DNA of 64,000 nucleotides. It comes from a virus. Taxonomy: Duplodnaviria > Caudoviricetes. The stretch covers positions 1 to 64,000 of the IMG/VR virus record IMGVR_UViG_3300042691_041259; one strand, 5' to 3'. A program made the translations under genes and the position numbers. Positions 372 through 64,000 of the stretch are shown one piece after another. Numbering within the stretch: position 1 is the stretch's first letter; every line of letters starts with the position of its first letter. The notes beneath the pieces were generated by a model. That model was not told the DNA's origin. It worked only from the letters and a program-made list of their open reading frames with translations, and made no database searches.

Positions 372-950
372 TTACCATATTTGAAAACCTCCGCATTCTC
401 TTAAGAAACTGATGAACTTTTTGATGCGGCCTAGACTGGTAGAGTGCGCCGAGTATGCAATAGTTCCATCCTCGGTAATTACTGGGCGTGTTAACATTTG
501 CCCGTACTCAAATCCTTCGGTGATCTTATTGCCGATTGACGAGTGTATGAATGCGGAATTCTCATCAACCCAAGAACCCAAAACAATATAGATGCTATCA
601 TCGTCATCGGTAAGGTCAGGATTCTCAAGTATAAGCTGTGTGAGCTTTTCCGCCATCGCATCGGCAAGCGTATTGCAAGTCTCTTGGTCTTCAGGACCAG
701 CGCCATCATTGTAGCCAAAGCGGCTGGTGTCAATGCCAAGTCCTTTTTCCTCATTGACCGCTTCAATCAAAGAGGCAAGTGGACGCCAACCCCACCAACT
801 GTCCTGGTAGTAATCGCCTGGGTTTTCACGGTGCCAATTTCCACGATCTTTGAAGTAAGCATCGCGCTGTTCGTCTGTTGAGCTGTCCCAGTCAATCTCG
901 GGCTTTGTGCCACGCAATACTGGATTTCTTCCTGAGATATCTACTCCCAT
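372..950 (-). CDS. Hypothetical phage protein (192 aa)
   Basis: Long acidic ORF packed against its neighbours on the dominant strand; no motif recognised. Confidence 0.7.
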   Translation of the reverse strand: MGVDISGRNPVLRGTKPEIDWDSSTDEQRDAYFKDRGNWHRENPGDYYQDSWWGWRPLASLIEAVNEEKGLGIDTSRFGYNDGAGPEDQETCNTLADAMAEKLTQLILENPDLTDDDDSIYIVLGSWVDENSAFIHSSIGNKITEGFEYGQMLTRPVITEDGTIAYSAHSTSLGRIKKFISFLRECGGFQIW

Positions 951-57120: not shown

Positions 57121-57594
57121 TTATTTTCGAGCGTATATATCATTAAAGGTATCAGTTTTTTCTATCACGGACCACGTCATATCGGAAAGAAGTTTTACTG
57201 ATGCAATAAAAATAATATCTTGGCGGTTCCACGCCAAAGGCTCAATCATAGAAAGAAATGTTGTTCCGTTTTCTCTAGTATATAAGTAGTATGTGTGTCC
57301 ACATTCAGGTTTAAACCGCAGTTCTGCCTGGTAGATTATGATAGAAATAAGTGCTCTTTCTTCCAGCTCCATGTACTGCTTTTTAAGCAGTTCTACTTGT
57401 TGGAGTATTTGAGCCTTTTGTGCTTCCACTTGCTCACTCATAGCAGTCATAGACTTGCTAAGTATTGCACCCATTTCATTAGGTCTAAAAGAAGGAGCCC
57501 CTATGGTGTGGCCATAGGGGAGCAGTCCTGGAAATATCGGTAATTGATTTTCGTCTTTTTGAGTAGGATCCATTTCAAAAGAATTAGATTCCAC
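57121..57594 (-). CDS. DUF2452-like protein
   Basis: QI.QQ.E.LK.Q...L, IY.AE.RFKP..G.TYYLY.R..G..FLS.I.P..W pattern, recognised from Bacteroidota proteins. Confidence 0.7.
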   Translation of the reverse strand: MESNSFEMDPTQKDENQLPIFPGLLPYGHTIGAPSFRPNEMGAILSKSMTAMSEQVEAQKAQILQQVELLKKQYMELEERALISIIIYQAELRFKPECGHTYYLYTRENGTTFLSMIEPLAWNRQDIIFIASVKLLSDMTWSVIEKTDTFNDIYARK

Positions 57595-59936: not shown

Positions 59937-60439
59937 TAGGAATTAACTCTTTTGAACAGAAACTCCTCAGTAACAATGATGAAGTTCTTATTATTAAGCC
60001 GGGCAAACTCTTGCGCTGCTTTAAATTTTGCCCGGTTTACCAACCAATCTGCTGCCATTTTATTGTATTCCTTTAGTCTCTTTATAGTAGTCAGACCTTC
60101 TTTCATTGAAGGCTGCTTTAAAGATTTTGAAGGTTTGATTTCTACCAGGTATTCAACTGGGCCATCCGGCTTTTGCAACTTCATATAAAAGTCTACAAAA
60201 TAACTGTGTTCCCTATTGTCCAAAGGACTAATGTATGGGATCGGAACTGGCTCAGAAGACCAAGAAATAACTTCAGGGGTTGAGTCGCAATATTTGCAAA
60301 AACGATACTCCCAAGAAGAACGATAAATGATTTTTGATGGATCACCTATATACTTCTCAGGAATGTTAGGCACAAAATAACCCTGCCGAAAACGGCTTCT
60401 CTTATGAGGTGGATTTGTTTTGTTGGTTTTTGCTCTCAC
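59936..60439 (-). CDS. Head completion nuclease (T4 gp4-like)
   Basis: KYIGDPSKIIYRSSWE..F..YCD..P..I.WSSE...IPY..P.D...H.YFVDF, LVEIKP, N.AK..AA. Confidence 0.92.
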   Translation of the reverse strand: MRAKTNKTNPPHKRSRFRQGYFVPNIPEKYIGDPSKIIYRSSWEYRFCKYCDSTPEVISWSSEPVPIPYISPLDNREHSYFVDFYMKLQKPDGPVEYLVEIKPSKSLKQPSMKEGLTTIKRLKEYNKMAADWLVNRAKFKAAQEFARLNNKNFIIVTEEFLFKRVNS

Positions 60440-60873
60440 AGTGTAAACACATTATCGTGACTGAGCGATACTTTTTCTCCAGCAGACAGCGGATGCAATT
60501 TACGCCATCCTTTTGCAAAGCCGTTTTTGATCATTTGCGTAAAATATGCAAAAGGATCTTTTGATTTTTCTGGATTGTAACTTCTCCAGTAACGTACCAC
60601 GTCCATCATTGCAAAAGCAATACAGTCTTTTCGATCTTCTTCATCACGATATCTCAATTTTTTAGAAGCTTCGCGAGCCATAGTCTGAAACATCTCAATT
60701 GCTCGAGGAGTCAGCGCATCTTTTTCGCGAGACCTTAAAACTTCTTCTCGAAGTTCTTTGGGATCAACGTAATAGTTTGATGGATTCTTTTTTACGCGGC
60801 CGGTGTTGCTGCGTTGGATGTCTCCCTTTCCTTCTCCAGGGAGTTCTTGTAGGTTGTTAGTTCCGTTATGCAT
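60436..60873 (-). CDS. Late-transcription sigma factor (T4 gp55-like); start codon uncertain
   Basis: NYYVD.KEL...., D.KDCIA.A..D....W..YNPEKS.DPFAYFTQ...N.F. Confidence 0.8.
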   Translation of the reverse strand: MHNGTNNLQELPGEGKGDIQRSNTGRVKKNPSNYYVDPKELREEVLRSREKDALTPRAIEMFQTMAREASKKLRYRDEEDRKDCIAFAMMDVVRYWRSYNPEKSKDPFAYFTQMIKNGFAKGWRKLHPLSAGEKVSLSHDNVFTL

Positions 60874-61421
60874 GAGTCTATTGCTTCTGATGAGAATGAA
60901 GTTCCTTCATCAACGGTTATTTTAAGTTCTTGAAGTTGCGCAATAGCGTTTTCGACTTGAACCAACACGTTGTCCATTTTACCGGTTACTTCATCTGGTT
61001 TGTTTTCATCTGTTTTCGGATTGTTTTTTATATCCGTTTCAGAATTGTATACACCAGCTTCAAAAAGTTTTACGTCGGACTTCTTAACGCTTGCCAACTT
61101 CTTATTAGGCAATATGATATCCACATTTTCGTTGTCGGCTTTTGATGTGTAGTCAAGAGCTTTAATCTGGACTTCGGTTCCAGCTGGAACCCCTTGTACC
61201 GCAACGCTAAGTTTTGCTTTTACGTACCCCTCTTGTTTTTCCTCTTTAATAGCAACGGTCCCGCCATCCCCTTGTGAATTGATTTCAACAGGATTGCCGG
61301 ACTTTGCTCGATGCTTTTTGTCTAGGGGCTGAAGGAGTTTAGCCTCTACTTTAGAGGTATCTCCTTTATCATCGACTACAGTAATGATTCCACCAGCGGA
61401 GTCAACCGCGGTAATGTTCAC
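60792..61421 (-). CDS. -1 frame continuation of the 524-aa gene (GTG start in the track)
   Basis: Begins on the last base of an A_AAA_AAG heptamer; its first residues complete a beta-barrel begun in the upstream ORF. Confidence 0.65.
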   Translation of the reverse strand: MNITAVDSAGGIITVVDDKGDTSKVEAKLLQPLDKKHRAKSGNPVEINSQGDGGTVAIKEEKQEGYVKAKLSVAVQGVPAGTEVQIKALDYTSKADNENVDIILPNKKLASVKKSDVKLFEAGVYNSETDIKNNPKTDENKPDEVTGKMDNVLVQVENAIAQLQELKITVDEGTSFSSEAIDSCITELTTYKNSLEKERETSNAATPAA

Positions 61422-61431
61422 TTTTTTTTTC
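61385..61431 (-). promoter_or_regulatory. Candidate programmed -1 ribosomal frameshift signal
   Basis: GGA AAA AAA AAG TGA followed 6 nt later by the TTACCGCGG-TTGACT-CCGC(T)GGTGG hairpin. Confidence 0.7.
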
Positions 61432-62992
61432 CTAGCGTAGCGGTGTCGCCTACATTAAAACCAAGGCCTTCAGATACTGTGGTGGCTGCGGTTTCAGCGT
61501 TGGCAAGCTTAGCGTATTCAGACTTAAGAAAATTGATCTCTTCATCAATTGCAGAGATGAGATCTTTTACCTCAGCCTCTTCGCTCATTCCGTCAGGAAG
61601 ATTTTCAAGCTTTGAACGTTGCTCAGTAAGATGAGCTATTGACTGTACAAATTCTTCTTTAAGTGTAGACATCTTTTTCAATTCCTTTTCCTCCTCATTT
61701 AAGAGTTCGGCAAATGTAGAAGAAATGTCAGTCTTCATGAATTCCATTACAAGATTCTTGGTTTGAGTAGCATTGCAATCTGTGTAGAATACGCTTTCAT
61801 TCATCAATTTGTTTGACTTGTTGATGAAGATATTTTCTCCCAAGAAGAATAGTGTCATTGATTTGCCAGCGTCAGACTTTGATGTGATAGTCTTGGCAAA
61901 ATCCATTTCAAAAATATTGTTCCAGTTTTCAGAGATAGCAAAAATAGCATTAATGTTTTTGCTTTCAGTCATTCTGAATACTCCAGCATTAAGATATACT
62001 TTATGAATGTCTTCTTTATTTACAACCTTTCCATTGATCTTTACTTGAGACTCGCTGATTTCAATCACTTTGTCTCCTGAGTATAACTTAATCAAGCCTT
62101 CAGCCACAATTACGTTATCCCAGGTAAGAATATCAGCTACTGCTTTGAAAGATTCTGGAAGAGCTGTTATCTCATCGCTTGATGCAATGGCAATAGAATT
62201 ACCTTCTTTTTTGTATACTTGTGAACCTGCAAGGAAAAACTCGCTGGATTCTGCTATGAAAACTGGTGAATATACTCGGTTGATATTGCAGCTAGTATCG
62301 CTTGCTGCTATATGGAAAGCTCTTTCAGATTCAGAAAGAAACTTATGCAGATTTTTTACATTTGGATCAAATAAAAACTGTGAAGCCTTTTCCATGAGCT
62401 TTACTCTTGAAGAAGAATTGCGATTGTTCAAATACTCATCTAATTGAGCAGACATTGCTGGCATTAAATAGTTTGAAGTAGAACGCTTAATGTTTTCTAC
62501 AATTTTGTAGATTGTAATTTCTTCACGGAATTTCTCAGAATTCTCTGTCAATGATTTCAAACATTCATTAACAGTAGGATCCCAGTTAAATGGTGTGAGG
62601 GAAGCGATAACGCTTTCAATAATCATCCATTCTGGTTGTGCAGTCACAGCTTTAAGCTTTTCAAACATATATGAGAAAGCTGGATGCTTTGAGATCTCAG
62701 ACTCGCCAATAACAGCAAATGTCTTCTTTACTCCGAGATTGTTTAAGTTTTCGATTCTCTTTTCGATAACGTTCATTGAAATGAACTGCTTTGCAGACTC
62801 ATCCTCAATTTTTGACAGACCTTCAATAAGTGTGTTCAAAATATCTGCCTCAAGAACTGAGTTTTCTTCTGCAGAAATAGCATAGGCGTTATTGCTGTCG
62901 ATTCGACGGATAGCCTCGTTGCATGCATTAAGTACTGCGGTTGACGTTGTTTTGGTCTGCAGTGTTTCAATTCTATTTCTTAGTGTAGACAT
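61418..62992 (-). CDS. Hypothetical, largely helical protein (524 aa), head-gene cluster
   Basis: Follows a class III motif; ends in the A9 run. Confidence 0.75.
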   Translation of the reverse strand: MSTLRNRIETLQTKTTSTAVLNACNEAIRRIDSNNAYAISAEENSVLEADILNTLIEGLSKIEDESAKQFISMNVIEKRIENLNNLGVKKTFAVIGESEISKHPAFSYMFEKLKAVTAQPEWMIIESVIASLTPFNWDPTVNECLKSLTENSEKFREEITIYKIVENIKRSTSNYLMPAMSAQLDEYLNNRNSSSRVKLMEKASQFLFDPNVKNLHKFLSESERAFHIAASDTSCNINRVYSPVFIAESSEFFLAGSQVYKKEGNSIAIASSDEITALPESFKAVADILTWDNVIVAEGLIKLYSGDKVIEISESQVKINGKVVNKEDIHKVYLNAGVFRMTESKNINAIFAISENWNNIFEMDFAKTITSKSDAGKSMTLFFLGENIFINKSNKLMNESVFYTDCNATQTKNLVMEFMKTDISSTFAELLNEEEKELKKMSTLKEEFVQSIAHLTEQRSKLENLPDGMSEEAEVKDLISAIDEEINFLKSEYAKLANAETAATTVSEGLGFNVGDTATLGKKK

Positions 62993-63022: not shown

Positions 63023-63031
63023 CTATATATC
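63023..63031 (-). promoter_or_regulatory. Class III promoter GATATATAG
   Basis: Heads the run 524-aa gene, sigma, gp4, gp2, portal, fibre. Confidence 0.65.
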
Positions 63032-63057: not shown

Positions 63058-64000
63058 TTACTTGACAGTTATGTGACCATCGATAAGCCCGCCTTGTATT
63101 AAAGTCAAAGGCGAGGATAAGTTAGCGTTGTTTGTTATTTGTATTTCGTTAGTTGCTTCCATTATTTGCTCAACAGTACTACCGATAGGAATACCAGCTC
63201 CTACAACAGGCATACCTATATAGATACCAAGAGCGTCAAGGTTGCCCGCTATTGATATGTTTGGTATAAGATTTGTGAGCATATTTGACCCGTTAGTGGT
63301 CTGTGCCTGAAATTCTATAGGCTTTCTTAAAATTTGCGAGACGCTTTCATTATTTGCGTCCTCTATCAAAAGCTCAAATTTGTTTACCGGAGTAGGATCA
63401 AAATCTGCGCCAACCGCATATACGGTAGATCCTATTATCGTGCCAGCAACTACGTTTGGCGATATTGTTGGCGCTATAGTTGCATGAGACGTATCATTAA
63501 CTATAATGCTATCCGTTCCCAGGTATGTATAACCTCCATTAAGAACTATGATATTTTCTACGTTTCCAAGAGCATTGATGATTGCTCTTAACGAAGCGCC
63601 CTGTCCAGATTGCGTGCTTACAAAAGCTTTTGTTGTTTCTGGTTTGGTTTCCGCTCCACTTGTGTTAAAGAATGGGATGTTCCATGTATAAGACCCAGAG
63701 TTTTTTAGATTTTTGACAATTGGAATCCAATCTGGATTGCCCACTCTTCTATAGTATATGTTAACTCTGGTAATAGGGCCTGTGTTTGTCCATGAAATAA
63801 TCGATTGGCCGGAAGAAAAGTAAATTTCACCATGGCTTGGCGAAGTGATTTCAAATCTTGGAAGATTGTATTTTTCATCAGATTTCCACTCAATGTTTGG
63901 TCCGCCTGGGTAATTCATACGGTTTCCGCCAAATCTTTCCGTAGTTGGATCGGTAACTGGGAAGTATGTTTCCAATTGCAATGGAACGTTGAAAGCAATT
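63058..64000 (-). CDS. 5'-truncated structural protein (possible gp15-like C-terminus plus Ig-like and beta-repeat domains)
   Basis: The frame is open to the window edge (IAFNVPLQLETYFPV). It contains FEITSP...ISWTN...IYY...W..I...N.GSYTWNIP and the GAGIPIGSTV repeat also seen at 22983..23690. Confidence 0.55.
   Translation of the reverse strand, partial: IAFNVPLQLETYFPVTDPTTERFGGNRMNYPGGPNIEWKSDEKYNLPRFEITSPSHGEIYFSSGQSIISWTNTGPITRVNIYYRRVGNPDWIPIVKNLKNSGSYTWNIPFFNTSGAETKPETTKAFVSTQSGQGASLRAIINALGNVENIIVLNGGYTYLGTDSIIVNDTSHATIAPTISPNVVAGTIIGSTVYAVGADFDPTPVNKFELLIEDANNESVSQILRKPIEFQAQTTNGSNMLTNLIPNISIAGNLDALGIYIGMPVVGAGIPIGSTVEQIMEATNEIQITNNANLSSPLTLIQGGLIDGHITVK

Follow-up and report, generated by a model that had tools for sequence, protein, structure and literature searches.

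Conserved A9G slip site and probable programmed recoding of a split small-barrel gene in a T4-like jumbo phage

A -1 ribosomal shift at the heptamer A_AAA_AAG is known from Escherichia coli dnaX, which yields tau and gamma, and from orfAB of IS911/IS3, and these genes give two products with a common N-terminus. In Thermus thermophilus dnaX and in IS630-type transposase genes, it is RNA polymerase that slips, on a run of A9/T9. Phages provide further examples: lambda G/GT (the tail assembly chaperone frameshift) and T7 10A/10B are late genes that produce a major short form and a minor extended one. To our knowledge, no -1 frameshift has been described in the T4-like lineage. The known recoding event of T4 is the bypass in gene 60 (PMC5009743). 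Here we analyse a gene, called X below, of an uncultured T4-like freshwater jumbo phage with a genome of 202.5 kb. The gene lies in a window of 64,000 nucleotides, by which we mean the whole stretch of DNA that was analysed, and its features are collected in the table.

Features of gene X and its surroundings (positions are those of the window)
Feature	Position	Strand	Remarks
ORF-A	61418-62992	(-)	524 aa, P0001, ATG start; predicted short isoform
ORF-B	60792-61421	(-)	209 codons, -1 frame; probably expressed only as the C-terminal part of a 733-aa form
Slip site A9G	61421-61430	(-)	A9 = 61430-61422, G = 61421
0-frame stop TGA	61418-61420	(-)	directly 3' of the slip site
3' hairpin	61392-61412	(-)	5' arm 61412-61406, 3' arm 61399-61392
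Barrel 1 coding region (predicted)	61320-61456	(-)	fusion residues ~513-558; frame change in first loop
gp15-like tail sheath stabiliser	63058-64000, on to 64590 of the genome	(-)	510 aa; PF16724
gp55-like late sigma factor gene	60436-60873	(-)	ATG 82 nt inside the 3' end of ORF-B
Promoter-like motif GATATATAG	63023-63031	(-)	~38 nt upstream of the ORF-A ATG

ORF-A ends in CTA GGA AAA AAA AAG TGA. An earlier note on this DNA had reported this ending, with a heptamer before the stop codon, and a following frame in -1 with GTG as its only start; the sequence confirms both, the GTG that opens ORF-B overlapping AAG TGA at the end of ORF-A. The A_AAA_AAG heptamer spans 61427-61421 and has the X_XXY_YYZ phase relative to the ORF-A frame. 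As the 0 frame runs ..A AAA AAA AAG, the slip site consists of two overlapping heptamers, A_AAA_AAA and A_AAA_AAG. Fusion across the junction would read ...GFNVGDTATLGKKK|VNITAVDSAGG..., in agreement with the earlier note, and the predicted junction peptide, ..LGKKKVNITAVD.., is identical under ribosomal and polymerase slippage. We rejected a reading of TGA as Trp: the 0 frame would then reach a TAG after only 13 more codons, and under table 11 every neighbouring gene is uninterrupted. In 202.5 kb of sequence a single A9 run would attract no notice by itself. Runs of nine A or T number two in this genome, against about 6.7 expected from its base composition; the one at the slip site is the sole 9-nt A/T run in coding sequence, and the other is intergenic, within a terminator-like hairpin.

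What sets the run apart is its conservation. The earlier note had proposed looking for the A run in homologues, and A9G or A10G stands in the same phase at 41 distinct homologous junctions with 35-89% amino acid identity, drawn from IMG/VR, JGI, ENA and Logan and hence from many independent assemblies. Each of these junctions is followed by a -1 ORF of 154-217 aa. Chance falls far short of explaining a run that stays so constant in about 40 diverged homologues. The residue before the run varies (L, E, G, S), as does its 5' end (A9 or A10), and the codon before it ends in A in every case (TTA, GAA, GGA, TCA or CTA). The lysine codons at the site are always AAA, AAA and AAG, against a background AAA usage of 74%, and 39 of 39 homologues have AAG as the last of them, where the background use of AAG is 26%. 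In the same 39 of 39 the 0-frame stop falls 0-2 codons past AAG, for which the background probability is 0.21. The 28 homologues of ORF-A are 481-534 aa long, most of them 514-534 aa, and their C-terminal KKK is invariant or nearly so.

ORF-B, for its part, behaves as a coding sequence that has no start of its own. Its dN/dS of 0.05-0.25 indicates purifying selection, and in the closest pair dS is already 0.68 with the A run unchanged. In 18 of the first 22 loci checked, no ATG, GTG or TTG for the -1 ORF lies near the junction, and the -1 frame is open for just 3-11 codons upstream of the slip site. We found no homologue with an independent, ATG-started ORF-B lacking the run, an arrangement that the earlier note had named as evidence against frameshifting, and most are without any -1 start codon. 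Database entries for ORF-B consist only of truncated gene calls of 55-196 aa.

The frame change also falls inside a predicted domain. ORF-A comprises a helical N-domain, a beta-rich middle domain, a coiled-coil hairpin, the first strand of barrel 1 and the loop G-K-K-K; ORF-B continues with strands 2-5 of barrel 1, a disordered linker, barrel 2, the conserved motif GVYNSE..NPKT.EN.PD and a C-terminal helical hairpin. AlphaFold gave two models that run across the junction, and in the domain model the strands of barrel 1 are 517-520 | 527-531, 536-540, 546-550 and 554-558, with a pLDDT of 79-87, and the top Foldseek matches are tandem KOW (5ohq, 4ytl), Tudor (SETDB1), Agenet and SH3 folds (probability 0.9-1.0, E ~1e-3 to 3e-2). 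According to these models the split domain is a small barrel of the SH3/KOW/Tudor type, an assignment of fold class only. The view that a split beta-barrel is joined here thus holds up in the predicted fused structure, in the KOW/Tudor/SH3 matches and in the single-ORF orthologues described below. Neither ORF-A, ORF-B, the members of the alignments nor the orthologues gave anything above threshold in Pfam or PHROGs. The N-terminal 420 residues had no informative match in Foldseek PDB, VIA-align wide, AFDB clusters or ESM Atlas, where only generic helical hairpins and tandem small barrels were matched, and the matches in BFVD are uncharacterised phage proteins, including one of Tenacibaculum phage PTm1.

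In distant phages gene X is one ORF of 752-1006 aa. P0096 (859 aa), P0073 (762 aa) and P0088 (986 aa) share the N-terminal domains of X at 26-33% identity (E 1e-35 to 1e-77) and carry an ORF-A-like N-terminus and ORF-B-like small barrels in a single frame; P0003 (617 aa; LR756500.1), likewise a single ORF with the small barrels, matches the N-terminal domains at 27% identity (E 4e-22). The C-terminal helices of X recur in P0096 and P0088, and P0051, P0056, P0072 and P0076 have the same continuous architecture by sequence. The order gp15-like gene, X, gp55, gp4, gp2, portal is kept around P0096, P0073 and P0088 as far as their contigs reach. Where the split clade has GKKK encoded by A9G, the single-ORF orthologues have KNG or NDTGD in the barrel loop and no A run; their frame is continuous and they would therefore make one product only. 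Using the ORF-B region, a word-based search of a 5.8-billion-protein set brought up no fusion of 403-1283 aa, and an exhaustive profile search did recover the distant fused orthologues; the word-based negative thus reflects low sensitivity to distant forms and a real absence among close relatives. The locus had no blastn match among 50,697 phage records, and tblastn of the single-ORF orthologues against phage records retrieved Lak phages and LR756500.1 only, with no cultured phage that carries the family. The Lak megaphage homologue (TAG=Q) was discarded as junction evidence, as it runs into a low-complexity acidic region and is uninformative there.

Taken together, ORF-A and ORF-B are very likely one gene decoded two ways, which we regard as the best explanation of the locus. 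Programmed recoding, of whichever kind, is strongly indicated because the signal is conserved, ORF-B is under selection, start codons are absent, orthologues are continuous and a predicted barrel spans the junction. For the kind of recoding we lean, with little more than even confidence, towards -1 ribosomal frameshifting. Most ribosomes would read ..GGA AAA AAA AAG and stop at the adjacent TGA, leaving a 524-aa protein that would end after the first strand of barrel 1. A minority, as we infer it to be, would slip back one nucleotide on the A tract, the peptidyl- and aminoacyl-tRNA-Lys re-pairing from AAA-AAG, or from AAA-AAA one codon earlier, into the -1 frame. These ribosomes would go on with GTG AAC ATT.. 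to a 733-aa protein with a completed barrel 1, a second barrel of the same type and the C-terminal helical hairpin, and either slip position would give the identical junction ..LGKKK-VNITAVD...

A candidate stimulator of such a shift lies downstream. The 3' hairpin has 7 bp and one bulged T (8 bp with a terminal G-U), a 6-nt loop (TTGACT) and an energy of about -11 to -14 kcal/mol, which ranks among the lowest 3% when the gene is scanned in 40-nt windows. It begins 7-8 nt after AAG. The hairpin announced by the earlier note therefore exists, but it starts at 7-8 nt rather than 6 and has 7-8 bp rather than 9. It is present in the window and in L005-L008, L063, L066 and L067 (with a shifted register in the last two), and is missing in L029, L030 and every member at or below 42% identity, which confines it to the window's clade (at least 50% identity). 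Within this clade 83% of cells are paired, two pairs are compensatory, and 9-15 of 500 shuffles were as good. The hairpin, whose conservation had been suggested as a check, is thus seen in the window's clade, and no consensus 3' RNA structure was found in the rest of the family. Nor did the 48 nt upstream of the site contain a conserved purine-rich (Shine-Dalgarno-like) element or structure. Slipping in the window's clade would probably be made more frequent by this hairpin, which lies 8 nt downstream, and by the stop codon next to the site. If the host belongs to the Bacteroidota and has a tRNA-Lys(CUU), AAG should be less prone to shifting than it is in E. coli, which would count against a ribosomal shift.

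Explanations at the DNA level, or with two genes, fare poorly. It is highly improbable that the gene is truly continuous, with A9 arising from a miscall during sequencing or assembly, from a recent mutation that inactivated the gene, or from a tract that toggles in phase within the phage population. Homopolymers are prone to error, one contig (L050) has A8, and another of 1.3 kb (L062, protein P0038) has A10 and an in-frame fusion; however, L062 also has an additional A in a further A-run, 500 nt downstream, which breaks ORF-B, and therefore looks like a homopolymer-miscalling data set, so we rejected P0038 as a natural fusion. Across many samples and assemblers the run has an out-of-frame length at all 41 independent junctions, even at divergences where synonymous sites are saturated, and an in-frame run occurs in no long assembly. 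Since ORF-B is under purifying selection, it is no pseudogene. The earlier note had asked for a homopolymer indel to be sought as a sign of assembly error, and a 1407-nt DNA contig from a different study crosses the run without gap or indel. Less probable still is a pair of separate genes, with ORF-B made by termination-reinitiation at the overlapping GTGA (stop TGA, start GTG). The window, L005, L007, L008 and L029 do have AAG TGA with GTG in the -1 frame, a classical coupling arrangement, but the junction codon is GTA in L006, L030, L040, L055 and L058, and GCA, GCT, GGC or GGT at the other 29 of 39 junctions, with no start codon within 30 codons where this was tested. The junction lies within a predicted folded barrel, so that a separately made ORF-B would begin with an incomplete domain, and orthologues of X are continuous.

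Slippage of RNA polymerase is the alternative that we take seriously, because the family-wide invariant is a run of at least nine A's and not the heptamer alone; of the canonical A_AAA_AAG -1 signal reported earlier, the heptamer stands, and the label canonical is less certain. Here the host RNA polymerase, directed by the phage gp55 sigma, would slip on the T9 template and add one A to a fraction of the transcripts, alone or together with ribosomal slippage. Standard translation of A10 transcripts would then give the 733-aa fusion, and A9, A8, A11 or A12 transcripts would give the short form, in some cases lengthened by a few residues. Except for A8 in L050 the run is never 7 or 8 long, and its preceding codon always ends in A even though the residue varies. 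Nine is the run length of efficient bacterial RNA polymerase slippage (Atkins et al. 2016, PMC5009743), and slippage at such a run is productive in T. thermophilus dnaX (PMC5009743, PMC3711429). A family-wide stimulatory RNA structure is not conserved, and both unproductive frames close fast, although the closeness of the +1-frame stop does not exceed chance. The A8 variant of L050 puts ORF-B in the +1 frame, which a -1 ribosomal shift cannot rescue and a one-A deletion could. At about a quarter of the loci a stable hairpin lies immediately 5' of the run, a position at which a nascent-RNA hairpin promotes slippage in a Roseiflexus IS element (PMC5009743), but its covariation is weak (73% of cells paired, tested by hand, against 71% in shuffles). 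Against polymerase slippage stands the direction of the shift, which is -1 at 41 of the 42 split junctions: families with transcriptional realignment mix directions (PMC3711429), and a conserved direction is a mark of ribosomal frameshifting (Antonov et al. 2013, PMC3711429). Nor would polymerase slippage give any role to the compensatory changes and the 3' hairpin of the window's clade. Ribosomal frameshifting is thus favoured by the near-uniform direction, by the well-spaced hairpin, which has two compensatory pairs and an energy in the lowest 3-4% of windows, and by the contig that crosses the run without an indel; it is weakened because most of the family lacks the hairpin, because no upstream stimulator is conserved and because the three A's beyond the heptamer are invariant. 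A simple heptamer model does not call for these three A's, though two overlapping heptamers would profit from them. Slippage by polymerase as the explanation is possible but, in our judgement, somewhat doubtful, and it may act on the A tract alongside the ribosomal shift. One contig from an RNA library ends at the run (61431), and DNA contigs break there too; in consensus contigs such as these a minor A10 species would be invisible.

Gene X lies between a gp15-like gene, with gp46 and gp47 farther upstream, and gp55, gp4, gp2 and portal. The earlier note had placed it in the head cluster, just upstream of the late sigma factor; the gp55-like gene does adjoin it, but the cluster is not simply one of head genes. 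The gp15-like assignment is based on PF16724 (E 8.8e-7, 28.8 bits against a cut-off of 25), and the same neighbour occurs in the orthologous loci. The T4 neck-protein family PF11649 has a sub-threshold match elsewhere in the genome only, and none at X. The motif GATATATAG occurs 20 times on the minus strand of the genome and twice on the plus strand, and further genes that it precedes are those of the collagen-like fibre and the gp15-like protein; this distribution suggests that it is a probable late-type promoter of the phage. X itself is probably a late protein related to the virion or its assembly. The 82-nt overlap of ORF-B with gp55 is kept in the clade of at least 53% identity. In other loci of the frameshift clade the gp55 ATG lies 0-13 nt past the ORF-B stop, and in single-ORF relatives the gap between X and gp55 is 22-145 nt. 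We consider it unlikely that the slip site doubles as a valve on the synthesis of the late sigma factor. In such a scheme only shifted ribosomes or transcripts would traverse the 627 nt of ORF-B toward the gp55 start, and gp55 translation could be coupled to these ribosomes or occluded by them. If true, the amount of late sigma factor would be tied to slip frequency, closing a feedback loop through mRNA from the apparent late-type promoter.

The locus adds a well-supported, deeply conserved recoding event to the T4-like phages. Because of the way gene callers treat X, about 40 metagenomic phage genomes carry wrong annotations here: the 524-aa protein is listed by itself, next to a truncated piece of 55-196 aa or, if a GTG stands at the junction, a call of 209 aa. 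With KNG/NDTGD loops in some members and GKKK from A9G in others, the family offers a natural comparison for the origin of a recoding site, and A9G members with and without the hairpin form a test bed for ribosomal and polymerase slippage on the same tract. The type of mechanism is already known, and the gene family is new and absent from Pfam and PHROGs. With E. coli dnaX and IS911/IS3 orfAB, X shares the heptamer, its phase and the common N-terminus of two predicted products, in the window's clade also a 3' stem-loop at 7-8 nt, and with IS3-type elements a 0-frame stop adjoining the site. Unlike them, it has no conserved Shine-Dalgarno-like stimulator, its hairpin is mostly missing and its tract always has at least nine A's (with the exception of L050); moreover, the shifted product of dnaX is the short form, whereas that of X would be the long one. 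In common with T. thermophilus dnaX and IS630-type transposase genes, X has a conserved homopolymer of at least nine, alternative frames that close fast and no need of a conserved downstream structure, but it differs from them in its near-uniform direction and in the covarying 3' hairpin of one clade. As in lambda G/GT and T7 10A/10B, the -1 shift falls near the end of the upstream frame, at a site kept over wide divergence. X belongs to an unrelated and much larger family (524/733 aa), however, and it is neither placed before a tape-measure gene, nor a capsid protein, sitting instead in the order gp15-like, X, gp55.

As the earlier note had described, the upstream reading frame (ORF-A) ends in an A_AAA_AAG heptamer set directly before its TGA stop, and an overlapping ORF with a GTG start lies in the -1 frame (ORF-B). 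A -1 slip on the A9 tract would yield a fusion of 733 aa with the junction ..GFNVGDTATLGKKK-VNITAVDSAGG.. in place of the short form. By our own reading of the sequence, A9G comprises two overlapping heptamers, both leading to the same product, which speaks for a ribosomal shift. A hairpin is indeed present downstream, and its energy is within the lowest 3% among 40-nt windows of the same gene; it has 7 bp and one bulged T and begins 8 nt after the AAG, and not the roughly 9 bp at 6 nt first proposed. The tract is the sole 9-mer A/T run in coding sequence of the whole 202,505-bp genome. The only other 9-mer homopolymer, at genome positions 195147-195155 outside the window, makes up the A-arm of a hairpin between genes (A9, TCCGC..GCGGA, T4) that looks like a bidirectional terminator and adjoins the single tRNA gene of the genome, Arg-TCT.

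Features of the split gene, its predicted protein and its neighbourhood (window coordinates, unless given as fusion residues)
Feature	Position	Strand	Description
ORF-A (P0001)	61418-62992	minus	524 aa; 3' end CTA GGA AAA AAA AAG TGA
A9 run	61430-61422	minus	next base G at 61421
3' hairpin	arms 61412-61406 and 61399-61392	minus	loop TTGACT
ORF-B (P0002)	60792-61421	minus	209 codons, -1 frame; first codon GTG overlaps AAG TGA
Overlap of ORF-B with gp55-like late sigma gene	60792-60873	minus	gp55-like ATG 82 nt within ORF-B 3' end
GATATATAG promoter-like motif	63023-63031	minus	about 38 nt 5' of ORF-A ATG
GATATATA(G) motif site	57134-57141	minus	
Next upstream neighbour	63058-64000, on to genome 64590	minus	510-aa gp15-like tail sheath stabiliser; Pfam PF16724, E 8.8e-7, above cut-off
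Far upstream, transcription order			DNA polymerase fragment, UvsX, gp41 helicase, gp47, gp46
Downstream of ORF-A/ORF-B, in order			gp55-like late sigma, gp4 head closure, gp2, gp20 portal, 1466-aa collagen-like fibre
Helical domain	residues 1-221		AlphaFold2
Beta-rich domain	residues 235-406		AlphaFold2
Coiled-coil hairpin	residues 424-504		AlphaFold2
Barrel 1, five-stranded	residues 517-520, 527-531, 536-540, 546-550, 554-558		AlphaFold2; junction 524/525
Disordered linker	residues 558-588		AlphaFold2
Barrel 2	residues 590-643		AlphaFold2
Helical hairpin	residues 668-728		AlphaFold2
Contigs of P0096 and P0088			gp15_tss, X, ~116-aa gene, gp4 (TnsA-like N), gp2-sized gene, Portal_T4
P0088 contig, further upstream			gp46-like gene
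P0073 contig (shorter)			X, 120-aa gene, gp4

The split is conserved well beyond the window. We retrieved 28 homologous proteins at 38-89% identity (481-534 aa, mostly 514-534), all of which span only the ORF-A portion of the fusion and share the C-terminal consensus GFNVGDEAELxKKK. Homologous DNA was gathered from IMG/VR (22 loci), JGI metagenomes (34 loci) and an exact look-up, and removal of identical junctions left 41 distinct sequences, the window included. Each carries A9G, or in seven cases A10G with the extra A at the 5' side, in the common phase ..A AAA AAA AAG, with a 0-frame stop 0-2 codons past the AAG and a -1 ORF of 154-217 codons. The A-run is identical in the window and its closest relative, at a dS of already 0.68. 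An assembly error is rejected in view of the 41 concordant junctions and of a DNA contig of 1407 nt that comes from another study and aligns to 60861-62198 without gaps, at 60 substitutions. Independent initiation of ORF-B is rejected as well: among the first 22 loci, the -1 frame is open merely 3-11 codons 5' of the junction, and 18 have no ATG, GTG or TTG in that frame within 30 codons of it, so the GTG of the window is incidental. A pseudogene is rejected from the dN/dS of ORF-B (0.05-0.25) and its 27 invariant alignment columns; judged from these sequences, ORF-B is clearly coding. In a sub-clade of four loci (L016, L017, L019 and L045), barrel 2 has been lost through a deletion of ~45 residues (ORF-B of 162-166 aa), whereas A10G at the slip site is kept, as are barrel 1 and the C-terminal helices.

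A profile of ORF-B was then compared with 1.84 billion representative proteins. The close matches were fragments of 55-196 aa beginning at internal codons, as a gene caller produces from a frame without a start, and a word-based search for proteins of 403-1283 aa that carry a recognisable close ORF-B found none; the split state is hence the rule within the close family. Among the distant matches are single ORFs with lengths of 752-1006 aa (P0051, P0056, P0072, P0073, P0076, P0088 and P0096). They match ORF-A over their first 450-650 residues (26-33% identity, E 1e-35 to 1e-77) and bear the ORF-B barrels at their C-termini, together with the C-terminal helices in P0096 and P0088. The three that we located on contigs (P0096, P0073 and P0088) occupy the same slot as the split gene, X. 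These orthologues show that ORF-A and ORF-B are one gene. In the uncultured huge phage LR756500.1, a 617-aa protein also has a single barrel of this kind at its end, and a gp55-like gene comes next. In two Prevotella Lak megaphage loci (L001 and L003, 2158 onward, TAG read as Gln), an ORF-A-like region is N-terminal in a protein of >1670 aa and precedes a long acidic low-complexity stretch.

The fusion as modelled by AlphaFold2 from a 33-row alignment (mean pLDDT 77.8) agrees with the earlier proposal that the junction splits an SH3/KOW-like barrel. In a domain model whose alignment included the continuous orthologues, predicted barrel 1 spans the junction with pLDDT 79-87. In the sequence alignment, the loop G-K-K-K of the window corresponds to K-N-G or N-D-T-G-D of the continuous proteins. 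Among solved structures, tandem KOW (Spt5), Tudor (SETDB1), Agenet and SH3 domains match the two barrels best, so that the predicted barrels are of the KOW/Tudor/SH3 kind, an agreement in fold class only. No Pfam family matched the barrels above threshold, structure searches with the N-terminal domains of X gave nothing informative, and BFVD matches were limited to uncharacterised phage proteins, one of them from Tenacibaculum phage PTm1. The barrel-1 module also forms tandem arrays in large unannotated proteins (P0043, P0052, P0061, P0055, P0067 and P0092), with up to 23 copies in one protein of 2200 aa, and is a widespread repeat domain without a Pfam family.

Programmed recoding at the A9G site is very probable, and it could take place on the ribosome or during transcription, two mechanisms that are mutually compatible. 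For this window we lean slightly towards ribosomal -1 frameshifting. The heptamer sits in phase with ORF-A, its last Lys codon is AAG in 39/39 cases (26% background use), and the 0-frame stop falls within 0-2 codons in 39/39 (background probability 0.21). The direction of the shift is almost uniform among split homologues, a property by which Antonov et al. 2013 (PMC3711429) recognise ribosomal frameshifting. In the clade of the window (at least 50% identity), the 3' hairpin stands at the right spacing, with 83% of cells paired, two compensatory pairs (C-G/U-A/A-U at one, G-C/A-U at the other) and only 9-15 of 500 shuffles equally good. Conservation of the hairpin, unlike that of the A-run, ends there: it is missing from loci L029 and L030 and from all members with an identity of 42% or less, which favours slippage of RNA polymerase on the same tract, a serious alternative that we hold somewhat less likely for this window. 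The tract is at least 9 long everywhere except in L050, and 9 is the length of efficient slippage by bacterial polymerase, as used in T. thermophilus dnaX (PMC5009743). Moreover, the base 5' of AAA AAA AAG is always A (TTA 23, GAA 7, GGA 5, TCA 2, CTA 2), for amino acids whose A-ending codon use is 23-79%. A hairpin abuts the 5' side of the A-run in about a quarter of loci; across loci it shows neither a consensus nor convincing covariation.

L050 (3576-3660) is a divergent homologue with an insertion in its ORF-A (751 aa), where A8 replaces A9 and so places ORF-B in the +1 frame. The A8 is a miscall, or else this homologue requires a different shift; such a variant, rescuable only by deletion of one A, counts for the polymerase. 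On the 1.3-kb JGI contig L062 (protein P0038), A10 at 681-690 puts ORF-A and ORF-B in frame. It looks like a homopolymer-miscall data set, since a second extra A, in the other A-run of the gene (1188-1196), breaks ORF-B; the extra bases may stem from sequencing chemistry or may be RNA-derived. In run X12, an RNA library, a related strain has a metatranscriptome contig whose first base, window position 61431, directly follows the A-run. DNA contigs of run X1 break near 61431 too, and this end may be only a graph break at the homopolymer.

The window makes up the opening 64 kb of an IMG/VR viral record that is estimated to be 66% complete and has 40% G+C and T4-like core genes; related DNA is found in freshwater, riverine and lake metagenomes. 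Genome-wide, the GATATATAG motif has 20 copies on the minus strand and 2 on the plus. The GATATATA(G) motif, strongly biased in the same way (20 minus, 2 plus) and probably a late-type promoter of this phage, lies 20-60 nt 5' of several gene starts, and as ORF-A shares it with the collagen-like fibre and gp15-like genes, ORF-A is probably of the late class. As a working inference, position and promoter motif suggest that X is made late and is connected with the virion or its assembly. In the gp15-like neighbour the PF16724 (T4 gp15) match is confined to about the first 160 residues, and its orthologues on related contigs are between 279 and 513 aa long, so that a large C-terminal addition is present in this clade. 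The overlap of 82 nt between ORF-B and the gp55-like gene is kept in the window, L005-L008 and L030 (at least 53% identity); at all other loci of the frameshift clade the gp55 ATG lies 0-13 nt past the ORF-B stop, and in continuous orthologues the gap is 22-145 nt. Because only shifted ribosomes reach the end of ORF-B, gp55 translation could depend on the frameshift, an idea that is speculative and that we consider improbable.

The gene family of X is new, being absent from Pfam and PHROGs, as is its lineage of T4-like jumbo phages, known only from metagenomes and without a hit in cultured phages. New too are the placing of the slip site within a small barrel, at its predicted first loop, and the availability of continuous orthologues for comparison with the split gene. 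The recoding mechanism is of a known kind. If the shift is ribosomal, the closest case is E. coli dnaX or IS911, and if it occurs by polymerase slippage, T. thermophilus dnaX; lambda G/GT and T7 10A/10B follow the same logic, with two isoforms differing at the C-terminus.
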